Shown in pieces: positions 53 to 45,459 of a stretch of 64,000 nt of DNA. Origin of the DNA: Chloroflexota bacterium (GTDB lineage: Bacteria > Chloroflexota > UBA11872); contig DAOUIX010000141.1 in NCBI GenBank assembly GCA_034423235.1, positions 2,158 to 66,157 on the forward strand. The letters run 5' to 3'. The notes below the pieces were generated by a model that searched no databases, was not told the origin of the DNA, and saw only the letters and a program-made list of their open reading frames with translations. Made by a program: the position numbers and the translations under genes. The stretch's first letter is position 1. The number at the start of each line of letters is the position of its first letter.

Positions 53-2329
53 TTAGCCGCCGGCGTCGTTGGACGCCACGGCGGCCTGGACTTCGCGGGG
101 GGAGGCGGGGAGGTCGCGGATGCGGACGCCGATGGCGTTGGAGATGGCGTTGGCCATGGCCGCCAGGGGCGGGACGATGGGGACTTCGCCGACGCCACGC
201 ACGCCGTACGGGTGACCCGGGTTGGGAACCTCAACGATGACCGTCTCGATCATCGGCAGGTCGAGCGAGGTGGGCATGCGGTAGTCGAGGAAGCTGGCGT
301 TGAGCATGCGGCCTTCAGGGCTGTAGACGTACTCCTCGTTCAGCGCCCAGCCGACGCCCTGGGCAACGCCGCCTTCCATCTGGCCCTCGACGTAGGGCGG
401 GTAGATGGCGGTGCCGGCATCCTGCAAGGCCGTGTAACGCAGGACCTCGACCTTGCCGGTTTCGGTGTCGACTTCCACGTCGGCGATGTGGATGGCAAAG
501 GTGTTGCCGGAGCCATCGGGTGACGCGGTGGCCTTGCCCACGACTTCCAGGCCGTCCTCCTGGAGCGCGGCCGCGGCTTCCTGGAAGCTGAGGCTGGTCC
601 CGTTCTGGCTGAACATGCCAGCCTCGAACGTGACCGAATCAGCGGGCACGTCCCAATAGTCGGCCAGACCCTCGACCATCTGATCTTTCAGGTCCTCCGC
701 GGCCTCGATGGCCGCCCAGCCGGTGGCGAAGGTGACGCGGCTGCCGCCGGTGACGCCAGTGAAGGCGATGGAGTCGGTGTCCGGGACGATCGGGTCCACG
801 TCTTCGATGGGAATGCCCAGGAATTCGGCCAGTTGCATGGCGATGGACGTGCGTGTGCCGCCGATGTCCATGGAGCCTTCCAGCAGGGTGACGGTTCCGT
901 CGCCGTTGAGCCTGGCCACGGCGCTGGACTTGCCGCCGCCGTTGAGCCAGTAGCCGGAGGCCACGCCGCGGCCGCGGCGCTTGGTGCCGGTGGACTCGCC
1001 CAGCGGAGACTGCCAGTGGTCGGTGGCTTCGGCCGCATCGATGGTCTCGATGTTGCCGATGGGGTGGAAGCGCGTGCCGTCCACCCGCAGGTCGCCTTCC
1101 TTGGAGGCGTTGAGGCGGCGGAAGTCGAGGGGGTCCATGTCGAGCTCTTCGCAAATCTCGTCGATCAGGGCGTCGACGGCGAACTCGGCCTGGGGCGCGC
1201 CGGGGGCGCGGTAGGCGTGGGACTTGGGCTTGTTGACGATGACGTCGTAGCCGTCGACGCGGAAGTTCTCGATGTCGAACGGTCCGATGCAGCACAGGCA
1301 GCCGGCACTCACGGCCGAGCCGGGGTAGCCGCCGGCCTCGAAGGCCAGGTCGACGTTGACGGCCGTGATCTTGCCTTCATTGGTGACGCCCATTTTGACG
1401 GTCATGAAGGCGCCGGGAGCCGGGCCGGTGCCGATGAGGACCTCGGTGCGATTCATGGTCATCTTGACCGGGCGGCCGATCTTGCGGGACAGCACGGCCG
1501 CCAGCGGTTCGAGATAGACGGTGGTCTTGCCGCCAAACCCGCCGCCGATTTCCGCCGGGAGCACGCGGATCTTGGACTTGGGGTGCTCGAGCATGGTGGC
1601 CAACTCGTCGCGGATGCCGAAGTGGCCCTGCGAACTGGACTCCACGATCAGGTGGCCGTCCTGGTTCCAGTGGGCAAGGGCGTTGTGCGGCTCGATGTAG
1701 CCCTGGTGGACCATGGCGGTGGAGTAGGAACGCTCCATAATCAGGTCAGCCGCGGCATAGCCGGCCTCGACATCGCCTTCTTCGAAGATGAAGTGCTTGG
1801 CGATGTTGCTGGGGTTGTCATCGAAGACACCGCCGGTCTCGGTGTAGAGGTCGTCCAGGATGACTGGGGCGTCGTCGCGCATGGCTTCGCGGACGTCCAG
1901 CAGGGGCGGCAGGACTTCGTAGTCGACTTCAATCAGGCGCAGGGCTTCCTCGGCCTCGTGCACGCTGGCGGCGGCCACGGCGGCAATGACCTGGCCCTCA
2001 TAAGTGACGCGGCCGCGGGCGATGACCCGCTCGGCCATGTAGCGCAGGCTTTGCATGCCGGACTCGTTGGCCTCGGCCTCGCCGGCGCCCGGGTCGGGAA
2101 AGTCGTCGCCAGTGACCACGGCGAGAACCTGGCTCGAAGCCTCGGCGCGCGACGTGTCGATATTGCGAATGCGAGCCCTGGCGTGCGGGCTGCGCAGCAC
2201 TTTGCCCCAGACCATTCCGGGCATGTGGGCGTCCACGCCGTAGCGTGCGCGTCCCGTGACCTTGTCCACGCCGTCGTGGCGGACCGGTCGGGTTCCAACG
2301 ACTCGATACGCGCCGTTGCCTGCTGTCAT
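53..2329 (-). CDS. Xanthine dehydrogenase/aldehyde oxidase/CO-dehydrogenase-family molybdopterin-binding large subunit (paralog 2)
   Basis: 758 aa. N-terminal YRVVGTRPVRHDG..KVTG.ARYG and a long Mo-binding domain (GGGFGGK, AYRAPGAPQAEF) typical of the XDH/CoxL family. The active-site loop is neither form I (AYxCSFR) nor form II (AYRGAGR). About 55-60% identical by eye to the upstream paralog. Confidence 0.85.
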   Translation of the reverse strand: MTAGNGAYRVVGTRPVRHDGVDKVTGRARYGVDAHMPGMVWGKVLRSPHARARIRNIDTSRAEASSQVLAVVTGDDFPDPGAGEAEANESGMQSLRYMAERVIARGRVTYEGQVIAAVAAASVHEAEEALRLIEVDYEVLPPLLDVREAMRDDAPVILDDLYTETGGVFDDNPSNIAKHFIFEEGDVEAGYAAADLIMERSYSTAMVHQGYIEPHNALAHWNQDGHLIVESSSQGHFGIRDELATMLEHPKSKIRVLPAEIGGGFGGKTTVYLEPLAAVLSRKIGRPVKMTMNRTEVLIGTGPAPGAFMTVKMGVTNEGKITAVNVDLAFEAGGYPGSAVSAGCLCCIGPFDIENFRVDGYDVIVNKPKSHAYRAPGAPQAEFAVDALIDEICEELDMDPLDFRRLNASKEGDLRVDGTRFHPIGNIETIDAAEATDHWQSPLGESTGTKRRGRGVASGYWLNGGGKSSAVARLNGDGTVTLLEGSMDIGGTRTSIAMQLAEFLGIPIEDVDPIVPDTDSIAFTGVTGGSRVTFATGWAAIEAAEDLKDQMVEGLADYWDVPADSVTFEAGMFSQNGTSLSFQEAAAALQEDGLEVVGKATASPDGSGNTFAIHIADVEVDTETGKVEVLRYTALQDAGTAIYPPYVEGQMEGGVAQGVGWALNEEYVYSPEGRMLNASFLDYRMPTSLDLPMIETVIVEVPNPGHPYGVRGVGEVPIVPPLAAMANAISNAIGVRIRDLPASPREVQAAVASNDAGG

Positions 2330-2759: not shown

Positions 2760-5057
2760 TTACTCCTGCGCAGCCAGAGCCGCTTGCACGCGGGCCGGCG
2801 ACATGGGCAGATGGCTCATGCGGAGGCCGGTCGCGTCGTGAATCGCGTTGGCCACGGCCGCGGGCGGCGGCACGATGGGTACTTCGCCCACGCCGCGAAC
2901 ACCGTAGGGATGCCCGGGGTTGGGCACCTCGACGATGATCGTCTCGATGTTGGGAACGTCGAGCGCGGTCGGCATGCGGTAGTCCAGCAAGCTGGCATTG
3001 AGCAAGTGACCGTCGGCGTTGTAAACGTACTCCTCGTTGAGCGCCCAGCCGACGCCCTGCACGACGCCGCCCTGCATCTGGCCTTCGACGTACGGCGGAT
3101 AAATGGCGACGCCGGCGTCCTGAACGGCGGTGTACCGCAGGACTTCGACTTTGCCGGTTTCTTCATCCACTTCCACGTCGGCAATATGGACGGCGAAGGC
3201 GCCACCCTCGCGGGTGGGCGTGACCGTGTTTTTGCCGATTGGGAATACGCCCTCTTCCTCCAGCAGACCGGCCGCTTCGCCCACGGAGGCCGAGTTGCCG
3301 TTGGCCGAGAATGTACCGTCGGCATGCGCGATTGAGTCAGCGGCGACATCCCAGAGGTCCGCCAGGCCTTCGACAATCTGATCCTTCATGTCGTTGGCGG
3401 CGTTGTGGGCGGCCAGGCCGGTGGCAAAGGTGACCCGGCTGCCGCCGGTGACGTCGGTCTGCCCGACGGAGTCTGTGTCGGCCACGATCGGGTCCACGTC
3501 CTCGACGGAGATTCCCAACGTCTCGGCGAACTGCATGGCGATTGACGTTCGGGTTCCGCCGATGTCGGTTGAACCCTCAAGCAGCGTTACGCTGCCGTCG
3601 CTGTTCAACTTGGCGATCACGCTGGAGGTGAAGCCGATGTTGAACCAGAACCCGGAGGCGATGCCGCGCCCGCGCTTCTTGCCCGGGGCGGTTTCCAGCG
3701 GGGTCTGCCACTGGGCGGAGTCGCGCGCGGCCTCCATGCACTCGATGTGGCCGATGCGCGGATAGGGCGGCTGGGCAAGCTGCCAGTCGCCTTCCTTGGC
3801 GCTGTTCTTGAGGCGGAACTCGACGGGATCGATGTCGAGCGTGCGGCAGATTTCGTCGACCACCGTCTCGCTGGCGAACTCGGCGTGGGTGGCGCCGGGC
3901 GCGCGGTAGGCGTGGGTCTTGGGCTTGTTGACGACGACGTCAAAGCCTTCGACCTTGGCGTTGGGCATGTTGTACGGCGCGAAGACGCAGCGACAGCCCG
4001 CGCCCACGACGGAGCCGGGATAGCCGCCGGCGTCGAATGCCAGGTTGGCGTAGCCAGCGGTGATCATGCCGTCGTTGGTGACGCCCATCTTGACGCGCAC
4101 GTAGCCGCCCGGGGTCGGGCCGGTTGCTTTCAGGACGTCAGCCCGATCCATGGCCATCTTGATGGGATGGCCGGTCTGCTGGGACAGCAGGGCGGCCAGG
4201 GGCTCCAGGTAAGCCGTGGTCTTGCCGCCGAATCCGCCGCCGATCTCCATCGGCACGACATGAATCTTGGTAATCGGGTGATTGAGCAGGTCGGCCAGTT
4301 CCTGCCGGATGGTGAACGCGCCCTGGGAACTGCACCAGACGTGCAGGTGGCCGTCCTTGAGCCAGTTGGCGGTGGCGTTATGGGTTTCGATGTAGCCCTG
4401 GTGGACGACGCCAAACGTGAATTCGCGGTCGACGACCAAGTCCGCCGCTTCAAAGCCGGCATCAACGTCGCCAACCTCGTAAAGCATTTCCGCCGCGACG
4501 TTGCTGGGCTCTTCGGCGGTCGTGCCGTCAGCCCTGGCGGTGTAGAGGTCCTCGATGATGACCGGGGCGTCGGACTTCATTGCGTCCCAGACCTCAAGAA
4601 CCGGGTCGAGCACTTCGTACTCGACGTCGATCAGCTTGAGGGCCTCGGCGGCGACGTGCGGGTTGGCGGCCGCCACGGCGGCGATGGCGTGGCCGTGGTA
4701 GTGGACCTTGCCGCGCGCGAGCATGTTGGCGCTCTTGAATTTGAGCGGAAGACCAGGCGCTTCGCCGCCGCCGGTGAGCTTGTCGCCCGGGTCGGGGAAG
4801 GCGGCGCTGGTAATGACGGCGCGAACGCCGTCCAGGGCCTCGGCGCGGCTGGTGTCGATGCTGACGATGCGGGCATGGGCGTGCGGGCTACGCAGCACCT
4901 TGCCGTGTAGCTGGCCGGGCAGGTTGATGTCGGAGCCGTAGCGCGCTTCGCCGGTGACCTTTTCGAGGCCGTCGTGGCGAATTGGCCGGGTTCCGATGAC
5001 TTTGTATTCCTCGTCGTGATGCTTGATGGTCTGGCCAACTCTGGTGTCTACAGCCAT
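2760..5057 (-). CDS. XDH/CO-dehydrogenase-family molybdopterin-binding large subunit (paralog 1)
   Basis: The ORF track starts at 5240, but the motif-supported start is the internal Met (MAVDTRVGQTIKHHDEEYKVIGTRPIRHDG). Placing the start at 5057 leaves a 3-nt gap to the upstream 2Fe-2S subunit. Carries GGGFGGK and AYRAPGATHAEF motifs. Confidence 0.85.
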   Translation of the reverse strand: MAVDTRVGQTIKHHDEEYKVIGTRPIRHDGLEKVTGEARYGSDINLPGQLHGKVLRSPHAHARIVSIDTSRAEALDGVRAVITSAAFPDPGDKLTGGGEAPGLPLKFKSANMLARGKVHYHGHAIAAVAAANPHVAAEALKLIDVEYEVLDPVLEVWDAMKSDAPVIIEDLYTARADGTTAEEPSNVAAEMLYEVGDVDAGFEAADLVVDREFTFGVVHQGYIETHNATANWLKDGHLHVWCSSQGAFTIRQELADLLNHPITKIHVVPMEIGGGFGGKTTAYLEPLAALLSQQTGHPIKMAMDRADVLKATGPTPGGYVRVKMGVTNDGMITAGYANLAFDAGGYPGSVVGAGCRCVFAPYNMPNAKVEGFDVVVNKPKTHAYRAPGATHAEFASETVVDEICRTLDIDPVEFRLKNSAKEGDWQLAQPPYPRIGHIECMEAARDSAQWQTPLETAPGKKRGRGIASGFWFNIGFTSSVIAKLNSDGSVTLLEGSTDIGGTRTSIAMQFAETLGISVEDVDPIVADTDSVGQTDVTGGSRVTFATGLAAHNAANDMKDQIVEGLADLWDVAADSIAHADGTFSANGNSASVGEAAGLLEEEGVFPIGKNTVTPTREGGAFAVHIADVEVDEETGKVEVLRYTAVQDAGVAIYPPYVEGQMQGGVVQGVGWALNEEYVYNADGHLLNASLLDYRMPTALDVPNIETIIVEVPNPGHPYGVRGVGEVPIVPPPAAVANAIHDATGLRMSHLPMSPARVQAALAAQE

Positions 5058-38988: not shown

Positions 38989-39522
38989 GTGCTCCGCAGA
39001 ATTCTTGAACTCCCCGATCCCGACCTCCGCGAAGTCGCGGAGCCGATACCCAAAGTGACGCCCCGCGTCGAGGCGCTGGTTGACGACATGTTCGCCACCA
39101 TGCACGAAAACCTGGGGATCGGCCTCGCGGCGCCCCAGGTCGGAGAACTGTTGCGGCTGGTGGTCATCGAACTGCCGCCCAACGAAAAGGACCCGCAGGC
39201 CGGCATGCCGTTGGTGCTGATCAATCCCGAGCTGCGCCGGCTGGGAGAACGAGAGGCCATGAGCGAAGGCTGTCTTTCTCTCCCCGGTTTCCGCGCCATG
39301 GTCGAACGGGCGCGCACGGCCACAGTCACCTACACCGGCATGGACGGCCGGCTGGCCATGCTGGACGCCCAGGGTCTCCTGGCCCAGGCCATTCAGCACG
39401 AGATCGACCATCTGAACGGCGTGCTCTTCATCGATCACCTGGAATCCCTGGCTGAACTCGAACAGATCCCGCCGGACGGTCTCGACTGGGTTCCGGCCGA
39501 GGAGGACGACGAGGAGACGTAG
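38989..39522 (+). CDS. def: Peptide deformylase
   Basis: GIGLAAPQVG, EGCLSLPG and QHEIDHLNG motifs. Confidence 0.9.
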   Translation: MLRRILELPDPDLREVAEPIPKVTPRVEALVDDMFATMHENLGIGLAAPQVGELLRLVVIELPPNEKDPQAGMPLVLINPELRRLGEREAMSEGCLSLPGFRAMVERARTATVTYTGMDGRLAMLDAQGLLAQAIQHEIDHLNGVLFIDHLESLAELEQIPPDGLDWVPAEEDDEET

Positions 39523-39535
39523 CCCGTGCCTCGTC

Positions 39536-40072
39536 CTAGCGCGAGACTTCGCGGATGAGGTGCCGAAGTTCAGGCACCAGGAGATCTCCCAGCGCCAATT
39601 CCACCGCCGCGGTCGAACCCGGCGAGCACACCACCAGCGCCCGTCGGTACTTGCCGGCTACTGCCCGCGACAGGATTGATGCCGCACCGATCTGGTCCCA
39701 ACTAGCCCGCCGGAACCACTCCCCGTAACCGTCCAGCACCTTCTCCAGCATGGGCGTTACCGTGTCCACGGTGATGTCCCGGTCCCCCAGGCCGGTGCCG
39801 CCTGTACAGAACACGAACCGGCTCCCGGCCTCAATGGCGGCGTCGACCGCGGCGCGAATGTCGTCGGCCTCGTTTCGGATCAGGGCCTCGTGAATCACCT
39901 GGTGTCCGCCCGTCTCGATCAGAGCGGTCGCCGTCCGTCCTGATCGGTCAGTCCGCTCTGTCCGGCTGTCGCTGATCACAATCACCGCGCACGCGACTGC
40001 GCCAATCCCCTCGGCCTCGTGCCGGTGTTCACGAGTGGACGCGGATGCGTCGTGCGAATGGTCGTGACTCAC
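39536..40072 (-). CDS. moaB: Molybdenum cofactor biosynthesis protein MoaB/MogA family
   Basis: IVISDSRTE...FVFCTGGTGLGDRDIT...PGS matches the MogA/MoaB fold motifs. Confidence 0.8.
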   Translation of the reverse strand: MSHDHSHDASASTREHRHEAEGIGAVACAVIVISDSRTERTDRSGRTATALIETGGHQVIHEALIRNEADDIRAAVDAAIEAGSRFVFCTGGTGLGDRDITVDTVTPMLEKVLDGYGEWFRRASWDQIGAASILSRAVAGKYRRALVVCSPGSTAAVELALGDLLVPELRHLIREVSR

Positions 40073-40147
40073 GCGCAGTCTCCTAGGTCACAGGTGCGGA
40101 TTCGGAATCATACCCAGCGCGAACCCAGCCGCTGGTAGGCTCACAAC

Positions 40148-40447
40148 ATGGCCAGAGTGAAGCCCTCGGCCGCCACGTCGCCGCCCGAGGCCCCCGACCT
40201 TATTGCCGTGCGCGTCTTGTGCTTCGCCTCGCTGGCGGACCTGATGGGCGAACGGCGGCGCACCGTCAACCTGCCGTCTGGCGCCACCATCGCTGACGCC
40301 TTGAACGAACTGGCGAACGATGTGCCTGAGATCACCTGCCGTGCGCCGCACGTCTCGTTCGCCCTCAACGAAGCGTTTGTGCCCGCGGACACGCCTCTGT
40401 CGGACGGCGACGAACTGGCGCTCATCCCTCCGGTCTCCGGCGGATGA
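40148..40447 (+). CDS. moaD: Molybdopterin synthase sulfur-carrier subunit MoaD
   Basis: Ends ...ELALIPPVSGG and overlaps moaE by 4 nt. The functional start is probably the internal TTG/GTG (IAVRVLCFASL...), giving about 80 aa. Confidence 0.75.
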   Translation: MARVKPSAATSPPEAPDLIAVRVLCFASLADLMGERRRTVNLPSGATIADALNELANDVPEITCRAPHVSFALNEAFVPADTPLSDGDELALIPPVSGG

Positions 40448-40875
40448 TCGTCGAACTCACGTCGGACCCCATCGACGTTCCGCGGCTGATCGACCACGTC
40501 AACCAGCCGTCCAATGGCGGCATCTGCACATTTCTCGGCGTCGTGCGCGACAACGCCGACGGCCGGCCGGTCGTCAAGCTCGGCTACGAGGCCTACGAGT
40601 CGATGGCCGTCGCGCAGATGCGTACGATCGTCGAGGAGGCCATGCGGCGCTGGGACCTGGACGCCGTGGCGCTCTCACACCGTACCGGCGAACTGCGGAT
40701 CGGCGAGGCCAGCGTCGCCATCGCCGTCGGCGCACCCCATCGCGCCGAGGCCTTCGAGGCCTGCCGCTTCATCATCGACACGCTCAAGACCCGTGTCCCG
40801 ATCTGGAAGAAGGAGTTCTTCCAGGACGGTGCCGTTTGGGTCGAACCCGTGTCCTCCCAATCGTCGGCGGGCTGA
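40444..40875 (+). CDS. moaE: Molybdopterin synthase catalytic subunit MoaE
   Basis: GGICTFLGVVRD...SVAIAVGAPHRAEAFEACRFIID.LK...PIWKKE, MoaE signature. Confidence 0.85.
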   Translation: MIVELTSDPIDVPRLIDHVNQPSNGGICTFLGVVRDNADGRPVVKLGYEAYESMAVAQMRTIVEEAMRRWDLDAVALSHRTGELRIGEASVAIAVGAPHRAEAFEACRFIIDTLKTRVPIWKKEFFQDGAVWVEPVSSQSSAG

Positions 40876-40963
40876 TTCGGACCTCGCCTGGGAGGCCCAC
40901 TCAGTCGCGCGCCCACCACTCCACGCGCAAGTACGTCGCGTCAGGCCGGTCGGTTGGGCAGGC

Positions 40964-41188
40964 TCATCCGAATCGCTCCCGACCCTCCCGCACCGTCGCA
41001 ACGATCTCCTCGGTCGACACGCCCAGGTCAACGCCCTCAACGTCCAGGGGCGATGTCCGTGGAGTATCGGGCTGGACCACGAACGCTTGTCCACTTCGTC
41101 TACGAATCATGACAGCGCCATCCTGCTGGGCGACGTCCAGCAACGACGCGAGGTTCTGCCTGGCCTCCGAATAGGTGTAGACCTTCAC
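40964..41188 (-). CDS. Phd/YefM-family type II antitoxin
   Basis: VKVYTYSEARQNLASLLDVAQQDGAVMIRRRSGQAFVVQPD... carries the YSEARQNL YefM signature. GTG start overlaps the VapC stop (GTGA). Confidence 0.7.
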   Translation of the reverse strand: MKVYTYSEARQNLASLLDVAQQDGAVMIRRRSGQAFVVQPDTPRTSPLDVEGVDLGVSTEEIVATVREGRERFG

Positions 41189-41589
41189 GTGCCGACCTCC
41201 AGGACTTCCACTCCAGCGAGGGGCGCAGATATGGCTAGGCGCTTGTCCAATGTGAGCACGGGGCAGCGCATGAGCTGAGCACACGCGAGAACGTAGGCGT
41301 CGTAGGCGTACAGGCCAAGGCGCTGCGACAACCGGAGCGCCTGGCACAAATCCACGTCAATGAACCGGAACAACATTTGTTGGTAGCGCTCGACGGCTAG
41401 TTCGGCCTGCGCCAATGTAATCCGCCTGCGGCGAAGCATCGCGGAAAAGGCATTGCCTACTTCCCAGTGCATAGACGCTGGCGCCAATAGGCTGGCGCCG
41501 ATGGTGTGTTCAACGATTGCGGCGCGTTCCGACTCGTTGGCAATCACGGCGATGACCGCGGAAGTGTCGACAACCACTTTCATGGGCAA
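41185..41589 (-). CDS. vapC: PIN-domain ribonuclease toxin VapC
   Basis: 134 aa with PIN acidic residues: VVDTSAVIA (D), HWEVGNA (E), AYDAYVLA (D), LTLDKRL (D). Confidence 0.8.
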   Translation of the reverse strand: MPMKVVVDTSAVIAVIANESERAAIVEHTIGASLLAPASMHWEVGNAFSAMLRRRRITLAQAELAVERYQQMLFRFIDVDLCQALRLSQRLGLYAYDAYVLACAQLMRCPVLTLDKRLAISAPLAGVEVLEVGT

Positions 41590-41675
41590 TTGTACAAGTA
41601 ATCAGTCTGGTCGTCGCCCGCATTGTCGCCCCTCGAATCCATACTTCGTCGTGGTGGCCGAGCCCTGCCTTCGTG

Positions 41676-43484
41676 TCAGCCCACGTCCTGAGGCGGCTCA
41701 TACCCCAATCGCGCCGCTTCCTCGTAAGCGGCCTGCGCTTCTTCCGCGCGGCCAAGTTCATCCAGAATCTGCCCGCGGGTGTAATGCGCGATCCCCAGTT
41801 CGGGATTAGCCGCCACCGCGGCTTCGATGTCCTCCAGCGCCAGGTCCAGGTCGCCCATCAACATCCGTGCGTCGGCCAGGTTGTTCAGGGTTACCGCGTC
41901 AGCCCCCCGTAACTCCAGCGACCGTTCGTAGTCGGCAATCGCCTCCTGGTAGCGCTCGGCCTGGTGGTGCAGCAGAGCGCGCGCCGCGTAGGCGGACGCG
42001 TCGCTCGGGTCGATCTCGATGGCAGCCGCCAGGTCCTCCAGCGCTCCAGGCTCGTCGCCGAGGGACATGCGGATGCTGGCCCGCAACTCGTAGGCCAGGG
42101 GCAGTCCTGGCTCGTCCTCGATCAGCGCGCTCACCACGGCCAGCGCGTCGTCCAGCCGCTCGGCGAACCGCAGCACATCGGCGTAGAGCAGCCGGACTCC
42201 TACCCGCTCAGGCGCTGCCGCCACCGCGCGTTCCAGGTCCGCCAGCGCCGGCTCGACGTTCTGAAGATCGAGATGCAAGCGCGCCCGCTCGGCCAGGTAG
42301 TCGGGATTGTCGCCGGCAATGTCCAGCGCGCGCGTCAGCGCCTCGATGGCGCCCTCCACGTCACCCTGCGCGCTGAGCGATTGCGCCTGCCCGGCATGCG
42401 CCAAGGGATTGAGAGGATCGATACGAGCGGCCGCGCCATAGTCCTCGGCTGCGCCCATTGCGTCGCCCAGCGCAAGTCGTATGTCGCCGCGCGTGAATAG
42501 GGCAGGGAGAAACTCAGGAGCTATCTCCACCGCATACGTCGCCTCGGCCAGCGCTCGGTCTAATTCGCCGATCCCCTGCAAGGTCAGCGCCAGAACCAAT
42601 GCGGGCCGCGGATCGTCGGGCGAAGCGGCCTTCGCCAGCTCCAGGTCGTTGATGGCGGCATCGATTTCCTCCATCGCCAGGTACAGGCGGGCACGCTCGA
42701 TCAGATAGGCGGCGTTATTGGTGGAAATGTCGATAGCACGCGAAAGGGCGTCAACGGCGCCGGGAAGATCGCCTTGCGCCGCAAGAGCCCGTCCGTGCCC
42801 GAGGTGCGCCGAGGAGTTAAGCGGTTCGATTCGTATGGCCGACGTGTAGTCCTCGGCGGCGGCGGCAGCATTTCCCAACGCCAGGTGAATGTCGGCGCGC
42901 GTGATGAGCGCGGGCAGAAACTCGGGCGCCACTTCGACGGCCCGCGTCGCCTCGGCCAGCGCTCCTTCCAGGTCGCCGGCGAACTGATCCGCCAGCGCCA
43001 TCCCCATCAGGGGACGCGGGTCGTCCGGTACAGCCTCGGCCGCAGACTCGAATAACTTCCGAGCCTCCTCCAGGTCACCGCCCTGCAGAAGCTCCAGCGC
43101 GCGCTCGAGGTCGGCCTGAATTGATACCGGCGTTGCGGCCGCACCCGGAGAACTGGGCGGCGGTGCAAAGTCTGGCGGCGCCGTAATCACCGGGCTGGCA
43201 GTTGGGGGCGCCGTGACGCGGCCGATGGGCCCGCCGGCCCGCAGGTTTATCGTCGGCAGCCGCGGCGGCGCGTCCGCCGCCGGCGACTGATTTGCCGTTG
43301 GCGCAGCGGACGGCGTTATTGGCTCTGCCGCTGGCGATGGGGTGTCCGGCGTCTCCGTGACGAGAGGCGGATCGGTGGGCGACTCGCCGCAAGCCATCGC
43401 CGCGGCTGCCAGAAGCGCTCCCCCGAGCAGCAAGCCGGTGGCTTCCCGGCAGCGCCGTGTGCGGGCAGCTAGAAGGCCGGTCAC
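41676..43484 (-). CDS. TPR-repeat lipoprotein
   Basis: GTG start overlaps the upstream gene's stop. Lipobox AAAMACGE, a Pro/Ala/Thr-rich linker, then about 12 TPR-like units (repeated A..A...Y..A..IDP.N..A... pattern). Confidence 0.7.
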   Translation of the reverse strand: MTGLLAARTRRCREATGLLLGGALLAAAAMACGESPTDPPLVTETPDTPSPAAEPITPSAAPTANQSPAADAPPRLPTINLRAGGPIGRVTAPPTASPVITAPPDFAPPPSSPGAAATPVSIQADLERALELLQGGDLEEARKLFESAAEAVPDDPRPLMGMALADQFAGDLEGALAEATRAVEVAPEFLPALITRADIHLALGNAAAAAEDYTSAIRIEPLNSSAHLGHGRALAAQGDLPGAVDALSRAIDISTNNAAYLIERARLYLAMEEIDAAINDLELAKAASPDDPRPALVLALTLQGIGELDRALAEATYAVEIAPEFLPALFTRGDIRLALGDAMGAAEDYGAAARIDPLNPLAHAGQAQSLSAQGDVEGAIEALTRALDIAGDNPDYLAERARLHLDLQNVEPALADLERAVAAAPERVGVRLLYADVLRFAERLDDALAVVSALIEDEPGLPLAYELRASIRMSLGDEPGALEDLAAAIEIDPSDASAYAARALLHHQAERYQEAIADYERSLELRGADAVTLNNLADARMLMGDLDLALEDIEAAVAANPELGIAHYTRGQILDELGRAEEAQAAYEEAARLGYEPPQDVG

Positions 43485-45331
43485 GAAGGCGCCGGAAAGC
43501 CCATCGCGAACGCGAATTCGTCCTGAAAGTCCGGGACCGCCGACAGTTCCACATAGGAGACCCGCGCCGGCAAGTCCATGGCCCGCACACGCGCGGTAAG
43601 CGAAAGCAGGCACATCCGCGCCCCGTGCCCCGCGGCGTTCCCCACCGCGCGAATGGCTTCGGGGCCGACGTCCGGCACCAGGCCGATCGCGATGGCTCCC
43701 GCGGGATCGATGTAGCTGCCGAAAGCGCCGGCCAGGATCACTTCATCAAGGTCCTCGGCGGCCAGGCCGGCATGTGTCAACAGCACGTTCACCCCGCAAC
43801 GGATGCTCCCCTTGGCCAGTTGCAACTGCCGGATGTCCTGCGCGTGCAGCTTGATGGCCGAATCAGGATCGTCGGCCGATCCGTACAGCACGATCGCGCC
43901 GCCCGTCTGGTCCGGGATGATCCGGTCGGCATGGGCTGGGACGGCTTGCTCGGCCTCTTCCTGCCAGAGCAAGCGCCCACTCGGTGTCACAAGTCCGGTT
44001 CGTACTAACTCGGCCACGGCGTCGACCAACCCCGACCCGCAGATCCCGACGGGCTCGGCGTTGTCGATCATGTCGACCTCTATCGCGTCACCCTCAATGC
44101 GCACGCGCTCGATCGCGCCGGGCGCCGCCCGCATGCCTTGCGAGATCTCAGCGCCCTCAAACGCCGGTCCCGCGGGCGCCGCCGTGGCGAACAGCTCACG
44201 GCCCTTCTGCAGCACGATCTCGCCGTTCGTGCCCACGTCGATCGCCAGCACGTTGCCGCGGCGCCGTCCCAGGTTCGCGCTCAGCATCATTCCCACGATG
44301 TCGCCACCCACGTAGCTCGCCACGTTGGGCGAGATCCACACGGCTGCCGACGGCAACACGTCCAGTCCCACCTCGGCCGCGGTGGCGGTGATGGGATCGA
44401 CCATTGTGGGCACGAACGGCGAATACGAAATGCGCGACGGGTCCGCCCCAATCAACAGGTGTTCCATCACGGTGTTGCCAACGAACGTGAGTTCGTAGAC
44501 CTCGTGTCGCGCCACGCCACTGGCCTCAAGGCACCGCCCGATGATGTCGTTGACCGTCGACCGGACCGCCTGCGTCAGCCGCTCCACCCACTCGGCTCCT
44601 CGCATCGTCACACTCATGCGGCTGATCACGTCGCCGCCGTAGATGTGCTGCCCGTTCAGGCCGGAGGCCACGGCCACCTCTTCGCCCGTCACCAGGTTCA
44701 TCAGCGCCCCGACCACGGTTGTGGTGCCGATGTCGAACGCCAGGCCGAATCCGCGTGCGGTCGTATCGCCCGGCTCAACCGAGATGATCCGGTTCCCGGC
44801 AATCACCACCGTGATCCCGTGGCCGATGTCTTCGCCAATCGCCGCCAGTCGCCGCAGCGCTTCCAGCGATGGATCCAGGTCGCCCGCCACTGCCGCCAGT
44901 TCGTCTTGGATGCGCGACCAGTCGGCGCTCTGATCGTGCAGCGTCGGCTCGGTTGGCTTGACATAAATCTTCTGCACGTCCGGGTCCAGCCGAATTCGTC
45001 CCAACCCGGAACTCTCCACCACCCGCACGGCCCGCACGCCAACCGGGTGCGTATAGACCGCGCTCTCTTCCAGCGGGTGCTGACACGCCAGCCGCCAGCC
45101 GTGCGCCAACTGCTGGTCCGATAGGCGGCGACGGTCGTGCGCGTTCGGCAGCGGCGGTTCGGTCTCGCGAATCAGGACCCGGCAGGTCCCGCACGATCCT
45201 TTGCCGGAGCAGACCGTTTCAACCGGAATGTCGTTGGCCTGCGCGGCATCCAGGATCGTGACGCCCTCGGACGCGGTGATCTCGCGGTCCTCAGGCAGAA
45301 AGCGCGAACGGATAATCGGGTCAACGTTGAT
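43481..45331 (-). CDS. RACo-like protein: N-terminal plant-type [2Fe-2S] ferredoxin domain fused to an ASKHA-fold ATPase (DUF4445)
   Basis: [35 protein letters not shown] ferredoxin domain, a Cys/His-rich linker, then a large ASKHA/DUF4445-type domain ([12 protein letters not shown]...). Start is a probable TTG. Confidence 0.7.
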
Positions 45332-45459
45332 CAAGGAATCCCGCCGGGGCGACGCGAGCGAATGTTGGGCCTGATCTTCGCACGCCCACGGCCCGTGCCG
45401 ATGCCAGCGGCATGCTTGGGTACAATGAGCGGTCCACACAATGGACCCAGGAGAAGCAC

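Follow-up and report, generated by a model that had tools for sequence, protein, structure and literature searches.

We identified a two-gene toxin-antitoxin (TA) module on the minus strand of a 64,000-nucleotide stretch of DNA from a Chloroflexota bacterium (contig DAOUIX010000141.1, GenBank assembly GCA_034423235.1, forward-strand positions 2,158 to 66,157), referred to below as the window. The module begins with a PIN-domain toxin gene of the VapC type and continues directly with the gene of a small Phd/YefM-like antitoxin, and this toxin-first order is a trait of the family to which the module belongs, not a local accident. In TA operons the antitoxin gene normally comes first, an order that helps to guarantee an excess of antitoxin, and the well-studied toxin-first systems are drawn from other protein families and depend on additional promoters. 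The overall picture that we favour, and that we consider likely, is one of a functional VapC-type toxin and a YefM-headed, VapB-tailed antitoxin, encoded in a fixed toxin-first operon that is repressed at TGTACA boxes and balanced by translation.

Toxin-first order across the family

The order of the two genes was followed by a scan of one genome per species across 185,579 species. This gave 420 loci, and the best 80 of these were examined by searching their six-frame open reading frames (ORFs) with hidden Markov models of both protein families. Two of the 80 retrieved loci were uninformative, with a contig edge within 30 nucleotides (nt) of the PIN stop. In 78/78 informative loci the PIN gene comes first and is followed immediately by the Phd-like gene, which has the same orientation. 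A 4-nt ATGA or GTGA overlap joins the two genes in 59 of the 78, and the others have gaps of 0-3 nt, overlaps of 1 nt or, in one case, an overlap of 17 nt. A reciprocal check with two antitoxin homologues found the PIN gene of 132 amino acids (aa) directly upstream at seven of eight places. The pairing of toxin and antitoxin at this locus is not due to chance.

Relatives of both proteins are numerous in the databases, with 930 matches for the toxin (mostly 132-137 aa) and 2347 for the antitoxin (mostly 74 aa), and public annotation names them ‘VapC family toxin’ and ‘Phd/YefM family antitoxin’, respectively. Most of the 80 loci come from metagenome-assembled genomes (MAGs) of Chloroflexota/Dehalococcoidia. 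Other carriers include Acidobacteriota, Gemmatimonadota, Planctomycetota, Proteobacteria, Firmicutes (Heliomicrobium), Nitrospirota, Bacteroidota and one archaeal MAG. The pair was found in at least three unrelated genomic contexts, namely TPR/moaE (as in the window), ABC-transporter/MR_MLE and IstB-like/HIT, and the conserved unit is therefore the two genes alone. A tblastn search for the family itself returned none on plasmids (E<=1e-8) or phages. At E<=1e-3 there were only PIN relatives of 30-37% identity, on plasmids, and these stand in the canonical order: Phd then VapC in Rhizobium, a hypothetical gene then VapC in Nostoc, and Arc then VapC in Acidibrevibacterium.

Several individual loci depart from the common layout or carry additional copies. 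In L096 (positions 1000-1725; ENA ERZ25074053, ctg471134), an IstB/IS21-like sequence stands in place of the PIN gene, and the last ~50 nt of the toxin gene, with the antitoxin GGAGG, are left before an intact 74-aa antitoxin gene; this is an orphan antitoxin produced by rearrangement or by insertion sequence (IS) activity. Two copies of the module occur in one Planctomycetota contig (L074 and L080, JBGLNR010000001.1) and in one Longimicrobiales MAG (L078 and L082), which is consistent with mobile or duplicating behaviour. L087 has, some 50 nt beyond the full-length antitoxin gene, a second, partial antitoxin-like match (positions 3664-3810, E=2e-17) that may be a tandem duplicate or a remnant. 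In L069 there is a second, distant PIN-family match (positions 1650-2030, minus strand; E=3e-7), located some 1 kb upstream of the module and on the opposite strand to it. Three loci from MAGs labelled Gammaproteobacteria (L034), Legionellales (L041) and Clostridia (L042) have a layout near-identical to that of the Chloroflexota copies, and the upstream sequences of L039 and L041 are almost the same. Such Chloroflexota-like modules under other MAG labels could reflect recent transfer or binning errors.

The gene pair in the window

The features of the module in the window are the following.

41583 to 41597, minus strand: operator-like element tTGTACA-AT-TGcCcA(TG), abutting the toxin start; sequence in the window TGTACAATTGCCCA
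41589 to 41594, minus strand: -10-like hexamer TACAAT, 5 nt before the toxin ATG, with no Shine-Dalgarno sequence between
41185 to 41583, minus strand: PIN-domain (VapC-type) toxin gene, first gene of the module, 132 aa plus TGA stop (41187-41185), ATG at 41583
41196 to 41200, minus strand: Shine-Dalgarno sequence GGAGG of the antitoxin gene, 7 nt before its GTG, within the toxin codons Leu-Glu-Val (cTG GAG Gtc)
41185 to 41188, minus strand: GTGA overlap of the toxin stop TGA and the antitoxin start GTG, read from the sequence
40964 to 41188, minus strand: antitoxin gene, second gene of the module, 74 aa plus stop, GTG start

An earlier note on this DNA had described a PIN toxin gene followed by a YefM/Phd-type gene, and this description agrees with the ORFs, the Pfam matches and all 78 informative relatives. 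The coupling that it saw between the toxin TGA and the GTG of the 74-aa gene is indeed present, at 41188-41185, and the YefM-like N-terminus that it attributed to the 74-aa protein was recovered in comparisons with Escherichia coli YefM, given below. Its observation that no antitoxin lies upstream, where the 3' end of a TPR gene comes next, also stands. The note was right that the module mixes families (PIN with Phd/YefM) and overstated how novel this is, since PIN plus Phd is among the commonest VapBC combinations and the ‘hybrid’ aspect is thus ordinary. It had further treated the module as a single odd locus, which must be replaced by one member of a large, conserved family of fixed gene order.

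The toxin

The toxin begins with MKVVVDTS…, its start having been placed by alignment with 27 homologues. The start chosen by the ORF finder, a TTG at 41589 that would give 134 aa, was rejected because the homologues begin at the position of the ATG at 41583, with a product of 132 aa. The protein matches the Pfam family PIN (PF01850) with 43.4 bits (E=6e-11), and the acidic PIN residues D6, E41, D95 and D113 are invariant in an alignment of 28 family members. Its AlphaFold model (pLDDT 95) has a PIN fold, for which Foldseek gave PAE0151 (E=5e-7, TM-score 0.73) and PAE2754 as the best PDB matches, followed by Mycobacterium tuberculosis VapC26 and other VapC toxins. In addition, an NCBIfam search of the PIN protein assigned no family, and PADLOC returned no defence-system match for either the toxin or the antitoxin. 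The PIN toxin with conserved acidic catalytic residues that characterizes VapBC systems is present in both the sequence and the fold model, and the first gene is accordingly annotated here as a predicted, catalytically intact PIN (VapC-type) ribonuclease.

The antitoxin

The second gene encodes 74 aa. A longer ORF of 127 aa that starts from a GTG at 41347 was rejected, since a length of exactly 74 aa is almost universal among the close homologues in the databases. The protein matches Pfam PhdYeFM_antitox (PF02604) with 30.3 bits against a gathering cut-off of 29.8, over residues 1-39 only, and narrowly passes TIGR01552 phd_fam, with 21.5 against a cut-off of 20.8. The PF02604 match was found in 29/29 members of the antitoxin family tested. 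In the AlphaFold2 monomer model, a helix (residues 6-23) and two strands (26-29 and 35-38) are followed by a stretch of low confidence (41-60) and a second helix (59-73), and the linker between the head and the C-terminal helix is Pro/Ser-rich and disordered.

Two blocks are conserved in the family alignment, M-x-V-Y-T-Y-S-E-A-R-Q-N-L-A… in the head and S-P-L-D-V-E-G-V-D-L-G-V-T-T-D-E-I-V-x-x-I-R-E-G-R-E-R in the tail, the C-terminal helix having the motif SPLDVEGVDLGV(S/T)T(E/D)EIVxx(V/I)REGRER. The N-terminus of the window antitoxin, MKVYTYSEARQNLA, aligns with that of E. coli YefM, MRTISYSEARQNLS, as a single sequence with E=0.004, and the likeness stops at residue 40; the family profile matches E. 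coli YefM (2a6q) with E=2e-4. Within this region TYSEARQNLA in the head corresponds to SYSEARQNLS in E. coli YefM. The tail, on the other hand, is similar to the C-terminal end of a plasmid-encoded Rhizobium VapB of the canonical Phd type (VSQEEIQTWKQEGR in the antitoxin and VSTEEIVATVREGR in that VapB), and the motif V-S/T-x-E-E-I-x-x-x-x-x-E-G-R of the C-terminal helix also occurs in the canonical Phd-type VapB. The architecture of a VapB-type antitoxin, with a Phd/YefM head (residues 1-40), a flexible linker and a conserved C-terminal helix, can be followed through both the sequence and the model. The antitoxin thus appears to be chimeric, with a putative YefM-type DNA-binding head in its N-terminal 40 residues and a VapB-like C-terminal helix.

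An operator-like element upstream of the toxin gene

For all loci, the 60 nt that precede the toxin start were aligned, and palindromes were read from this alignment. The family has an operator-like element in the form of a perfect 12-base-pair (bp) palindrome, GTACAATTGTAC, which consists of two TGTACA boxes 8 bp apart from centre to centre. This palindrome lies at most 100 nt upstream of the toxin gene in 62 of the 78 loci (31 exact, 24 with one mismatch and 7 with two), and the remaining 450 kb of locus DNA hold no exact copy and a single one with one mismatch. In the window, a perfect TGTACA box (palindrome TTGTACAA, 41597-41590) is followed by a second box that overlaps the ATG of the toxin gene, and the only match to GTACAATTGTAC within two mismatches in the whole 64 kb is the one at 41584-41595, abutting that ATG. 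The closest relative (L009; toxin 85% identical, same synteny) differs from the palindrome by one mismatch and has the same weak -35 region as the window.

In E. coli, the yefM-yoeB operator is built from two palindromes with TGTACA cores, one long and one short, which lie 12 bp apart over the -10 box (Kedzierska et al. 2007, PMC1802561). E. coli YefM binds these TGTACA-core palindromes, the long (L) repeat of which is TCATTGTACAATGA, and paired TGTACA boxes are common upstream of yefM-yoeB across diverse genomes (PMC1802561). The antitoxin family described here therefore appears to have both a DNA-reading head and an operator core in common with YefM.

The 16 loci without GTACAATTGTAC have other inverted repeats upstream of the toxin gene, and in these the head motif of the antitoxin is altered (YTCSEAMKDL, LTCLEASQDL, YTGTELENLS…) and the tail motif is kept. 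Mean ungapped identity of the head was 0.28 in loci without the palindrome compared with 0.70 in those with it (Mann-Whitney p=2e-7), a gap that indels inflate in some loci, although the changes in the motif can be seen by eye. A head motif that changes together with the operator is what would be expected if the head reads the operator. In one Dehalococcoidia sub-clade (L047, L065 and L075) the antitoxin is 88-89 aa long, with an insertion of ~14 aa in the linker and the head LTCLEASQDL, and the upstream region has the inverted repeat ATCCGCGCAT…ATGCGGAT and not TGTACA boxes.

Promoter and translation signals

The two genes differ in their translation signals. In 76/76 loci the antitoxin start is preceded, at a distance of 4-17 nt, by a Shine-Dalgarno motif, which is GGAGG in 48 of them, whereas a Shine-Dalgarno-like motif precedes the toxin start in only 24 of the 76. 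The antitoxin motif falls within the toxin gene, and the Glu codon at this site is GAG in 63 of 74 loci compared with 52% at the other Glu codons of both genes (p=1e-8), a bias that points to selection at the nucleotide level.

In 35/76 loci, essentially those from Chloroflexota and including the window, the sequence TAnnnT lies 4-9 nt before the toxin start and there is no Shine-Dalgarno motif. The hexamer in these 35 loci is mostly TACAAT, ending 5-6 nt before the start codon, and TACAAT stands exactly 6 nt before the ATG in 21 loci. A -35 region that matches TTGACA at 4-6 of the 6 positions, at a spacing of 16-19 nt, was found in 26 of the 35. For L016 and L019, a promoter scan returned TTGACA-17-TACAAT (11/12 matches), which ends 6 nt before the ATG. 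The sequence TANNNT at about 12 nt before the start codon is a signature of leaderless bacterial genes that has been detected in Chloroflexi (Zheng et al. 2011, PMC3160421). The toxin mRNA is thus predicted to be leaderless or near-leaderless in most of the Chloroflexota copies.

Genomic neighbourhood

Upstream of the PIN gene there is a spacer of 92 nt and then the 3' end of the TPR gene, with its stop at 41676. The only ORF that overlaps this spacer encodes 83 aa (41510-41761) and has no Pfam match, and no antitoxin is encoded upstream of the toxin. RNA folding of the spacer revealed no structure above shuffled controls (z=0.21). After the antitoxin gene, the next gene is the convergent moaE, and no YoeB-like or other ORF lies between. 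The moaE assignment is based on synteny and on a product length identical to that in an annotated homologous locus (L001).

The module adjoins a molybdopterin-cofactor cluster, with a moaD/ThiS-like gene (40148-40447, plus strand), moaE (40444-40875, plus strand) and a MoCF_biosynth gene (39536-40072, minus strand), and beyond the cluster lies a peptide deformylase gene (38989-39522, plus strand), so that cluster and deformylase together occupy 38989-40875. The moaD/ThiS-like, MoCF_biosynth and peptide deformylase genes were likewise named by product length and synteny with L001. Upstream of the module, the minus strand of the window carries ORFs of 645 aa (41676-43613) and 652 aa (43481-45439) over 41676-45439, the coordinates of which overlap. 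The 645-aa ORF is Ala/Leu-rich with TPR-like repeats, and its counterpart in L001 (673 aa) has no Pfam match on record. GC content is ~60% over the module (40950-41700), compared with 66-70% in the flanking moaE and TPR genes and 66.6% in the whole window; this dip is a weak hint of horizontal acquisition.

A model for the module and alternative explanations

In the model that we favour, the C-terminal helix of the antitoxin would plug the PIN active site of the toxin. The head, alone or with the toxin, would bind the paired TGTACA boxes that overlap the -10 box and the toxin transcription start, and in this way repress the whole operon, as YefM does at yefM-yoeB. The toxin cistron has no Shine-Dalgarno sequence and is predicted to be leaderless in most Chloroflexota copies, and the antitoxin cistron, with GGAGG in the last codons of the toxin gene and coupled to it through the ATGA/GTGA overlap, would be translated in excess. 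Because the toxin gene comes first, it would be translation that secures this excess. Translational control is the commonest route to antitoxin excess (Deter et al. 2017, PMC5535158), and in this family too the excess is probably set by translation and not by gene order. In the window itself, the partly degenerate operator and the weak -35 region may therefore mean that the module is expressed at a low level or partly by read-through from the TPR gene.

Two further proposals of the earlier note bear on this model. It had expected the inverted order to bring a different autoregulation, which the sequence does not support: it is usual for the first gene of an operon to have the operator, here a YefM-type paired-TGTACA palindrome, at its promoter. 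Since a TGTACA operator at the toxin gene is combined with a YefM-like antitoxin head, autoregulation is probably YefM-like, from the promoter upstream of the first gene. The different toxin:antitoxin stoichiometry that the note had proposed is retained only as a suggestion, read from the lack of a Shine-Dalgarno sequence at the toxin gene and the strong one for the antitoxin in the 3' end of the toxin gene.

A number of observations weigh against the model. The Pfam and TIGRFAM matches of the antitoxin are scarcely above their cut-offs and span only 40 residues. Foldseek with the antitoxin model gave no significant match, Phd (3hry) and YefM (6l8e) appearing only at non-significant E-values; an uninformative fold search is expected for a small flexible monomer. 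The second TGTACA box in the window reads TGCCCA, with two mismatches, and the lone match to the palindrome is compatible with chance, given that at least one match arose in 27 of 100 shuffles, so that this match gains weight only from its position and from the pattern in the family. The boxes are 8 bp apart from centre to centre and not 12 bp as in E. coli, and the binding geometry may therefore differ. The best -35 region in the window matches at 3 of 6 positions and the promoter scan of the window found no promoter. In addition, there is no terminator between the TPR gene and the module on the same strand, and the toxin mRNA in the window may therefore not be leaderless. Read-through from the TPR gene is possible, in which case the toxin gene would be a poorly translated internal cistron, and we put leaderless expression in this particular window at slightly less than an even chance. 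Finally, the loci inspected for gene order are the best 80 of 420 only.

Alternative explanations differ in which part of the model they would replace. Antitoxin excess could come from an extra promoter within the toxin gene that yields an antitoxin-only transcript, as in mqsRA, rnlAB and hicAB, with translational asymmetry being secondary. An internal promoter is the documented solution in characterized E. coli reverse-order systems (Fraikin 2020, PMC7167474), and consensus scans are insensitive, above all to promoters that are weak or not of the sigma-70 type in a genome of 66% GC. Nevertheless, in the window, L016 and L019 a consensus scan of the gene strand, which may miss weak or alternative promoters, found no sigma-70-like site within the toxin gene, copies of the operator palindrome are confined to the region upstream of the toxin, and the universal Shine-Dalgarno motif together with the 4-nt overlap would already suffice as a mechanism, which makes an internal promoter unlikely in our view. 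We find it improbable that the pair has no addiction or defence role and is a chromosomally fixed ribonuclease with a dedicated inhibitor and repressor, serving housekeeping or stress RNA processing in Chloroflexota. Such a role would fit a family that was not found in plasmid and phage collections at family-level similarity, that has no PADLOC defence matches, that is highly conserved (products of 132 and 74 aa in the majority of close relatives, and identities of at least 50% between phyla) and that in several Dehalococcoidia genomes occupies a syntenic site, flanked by an ABC-transporter gene on one side and an MR_MLE gene on the other. It fits poorly with the patchy spread of the family over Acidobacteriota, Gemmatimonadota, Planctomycetota, Firmicutes, Proteobacteria and one archaeal MAG, the three or more unrelated contexts, the double copies in single genomes (L074/L080 and L078/L082), the GC of 60% in the module against 66-70% in its flanks and the copy in which an IS21-family (IstB-like) sequence has replaced the toxin gene and left an orphan antitoxin, all of which are typical of mobile TA modules.

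The adjacency of the two genes might also be incidental, the Phd-like gene being an orphan or the remnant of a yefM-yoeB operon and the PIN protein being neutralized by an overlooked product encoded upstream or internally. The YefM-like N-terminus of the 74-aa protein and the YefM-like operator could be read in this way, and the 83-aa ORF does overlap the spacer and the 5' region of the toxin gene. However, the pair is kept in every informative locus and at all but one of the places in the reciprocal check, and with the promoter and operator at 0-34 nt from the toxin start there is no space for another cistron upstream. The upstream genes vary with the context (TPR, ABC transporter, IstB-like), the 83-aa ORF lacks a Pfam match, no YoeB-like gene follows the antitoxin gene, the next gene in the window being the convergent moaE, and the antitoxin C-terminus resembles that of Phd-type VapB and not that of YefM. 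We therefore regard incidental adjacency as extremely improbable.

A more far-reaching extension of the translationally balanced operon is that a leaderless toxin cistron and a Shine-Dalgarno-dependent antitoxin cistron on one mRNA form a built-in sensor of the translation state. This is speculative and we think it rather unlikely. If it were true, any condition in which leaderless or 70S initiation is favoured, or in which Shine-Dalgarno-dependent initiation is impaired, would flip the ratio of toxin to antitoxin synthesis, and the PIN nuclease would be activated without proteolysis of the antitoxin. The Chloroflexota-centred family would then represent a distinct activation logic for VapBC-type modules, which would have originated by the grafting of a YefM operator-reading head and a VapB tail onto the gene after the toxin.

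Comparison with known systems

The pairing of a PIN toxin with a Phd-type antitoxin is routine, and toxin-first order is already known in other families. A survey of TA systems listed 285 PHD-PIN pairs (Makarova 2009, PMC2701414), a Phd-type partner was reported for 22% of TA-associated PIN domains (Matelska 2017, PMC5499597), and VapB4, VapB5 and VapB46 of M. tuberculosis are Phd-type (PMC6504116). In large surveys, each pair of toxin and antitoxin clusters tends toward one order (NetFlax, PMC10440598; TASmania, PMC6504116). We found in the literature no explicit description of a PIN-first, Phd-second family, of its TGTACA operator or of a leaderless toxin within it, and catalogue supplements, such as the orientation-specific pairs of TASmania, may list such a pair without comment.

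The module is closest in composition to the Phd-type VapBC systems, among them VapBC4, VapBC5 and VapBC46 of M. tuberculosis, ssl1004-sll0525 of Synechocystis and the plasmid-borne Phd-VapC of Rhizobium sp. K1/93. With these it has in common a PIN toxin with the four catalytic acidic residues, a small antitoxin that combines a Phd/YefM head with a C-terminal tail that binds, or here is predicted to bind, the toxin, and a two-gene operon with overlapping or abutting cistrons; with the Rhizobium sp. K1/93 antitoxin it also has in common the C-terminal motif VS.EEI.....EGR. Those systems are antitoxin-first, in contrast to the toxin-first order of every informative member here, and in this family the head is specifically YefM-like and the operator TGTACA-based. 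The canonical VapBC order, with vapB upstream of vapC, is not the order found, and that order is a habit of the VapBC family and not part of its formal definition. The solved structures closest to the toxin are those of PAE0151 and PAE2754 of Pyrobaculum aerophilum, with a profile match of E=6e-5 and alignment of the four catalytic acidic positions, although these proteins come from an archaeon and share only 21-29% identity with the toxin in the Foldseek structural alignments.

YefM-YoeB of E. coli (and Axe-Txe) resembles the module in the N-terminus of the antitoxin and in the paired TGTACA-core palindromes over the -10 box, and the L repeat of the E. coli operator has TTGTACAAT in common with the window. 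The differences are that the partner is a PIN nuclease and not the RelE-fold YoeB, that the likeness of the antitoxins ends at residue 40, that the gene order is reversed and that the box spacing is shorter. The reverse-order type II systems (higBA, hicAB, mqsRA, rnlAB, brnTA and the PIN-HicB pairs of Synechocystis) are likewise bicistronic and toxin-first, with a promoter upstream of the toxin (PMC7167474), and leaderless toxin-first modules of other families have been reported in Synechocystis (PMC4963859). The antitoxins of the reverse-order systems are helix-turn-helix/Xre, HicB, MqsA or RnlB proteins, whereas the antitoxin here is of the Phd/YefM type. Extra antitoxin promoters are present in rnlAB, mqsRA, hicAB and higBA (Fraikin et al. 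2020, PMC7167474), whereas none was detected here by the consensus scan and translational asymmetry is predicted.

Overall, these comparisons indicate that PIN/VapC, the commonest toxin class, also exists in a stable toxin-first form. The toxin would be restrained purely by translation, with neither a ribosome-binding site nor a leader of its own and with a strong antitoxin site within its last codons, and the paired TGTACA boxes offer a concrete DNA target for a YefM-like head on a VapB-like tail, in keeping with a modular, ‘mix and match’ evolution of antitoxins. In practical terms the family is of modest value: it bears on the annotation rules of TA finders that assume an antitoxin-first order and is a candidate for the study of leaderless translation in Chloroflexota.

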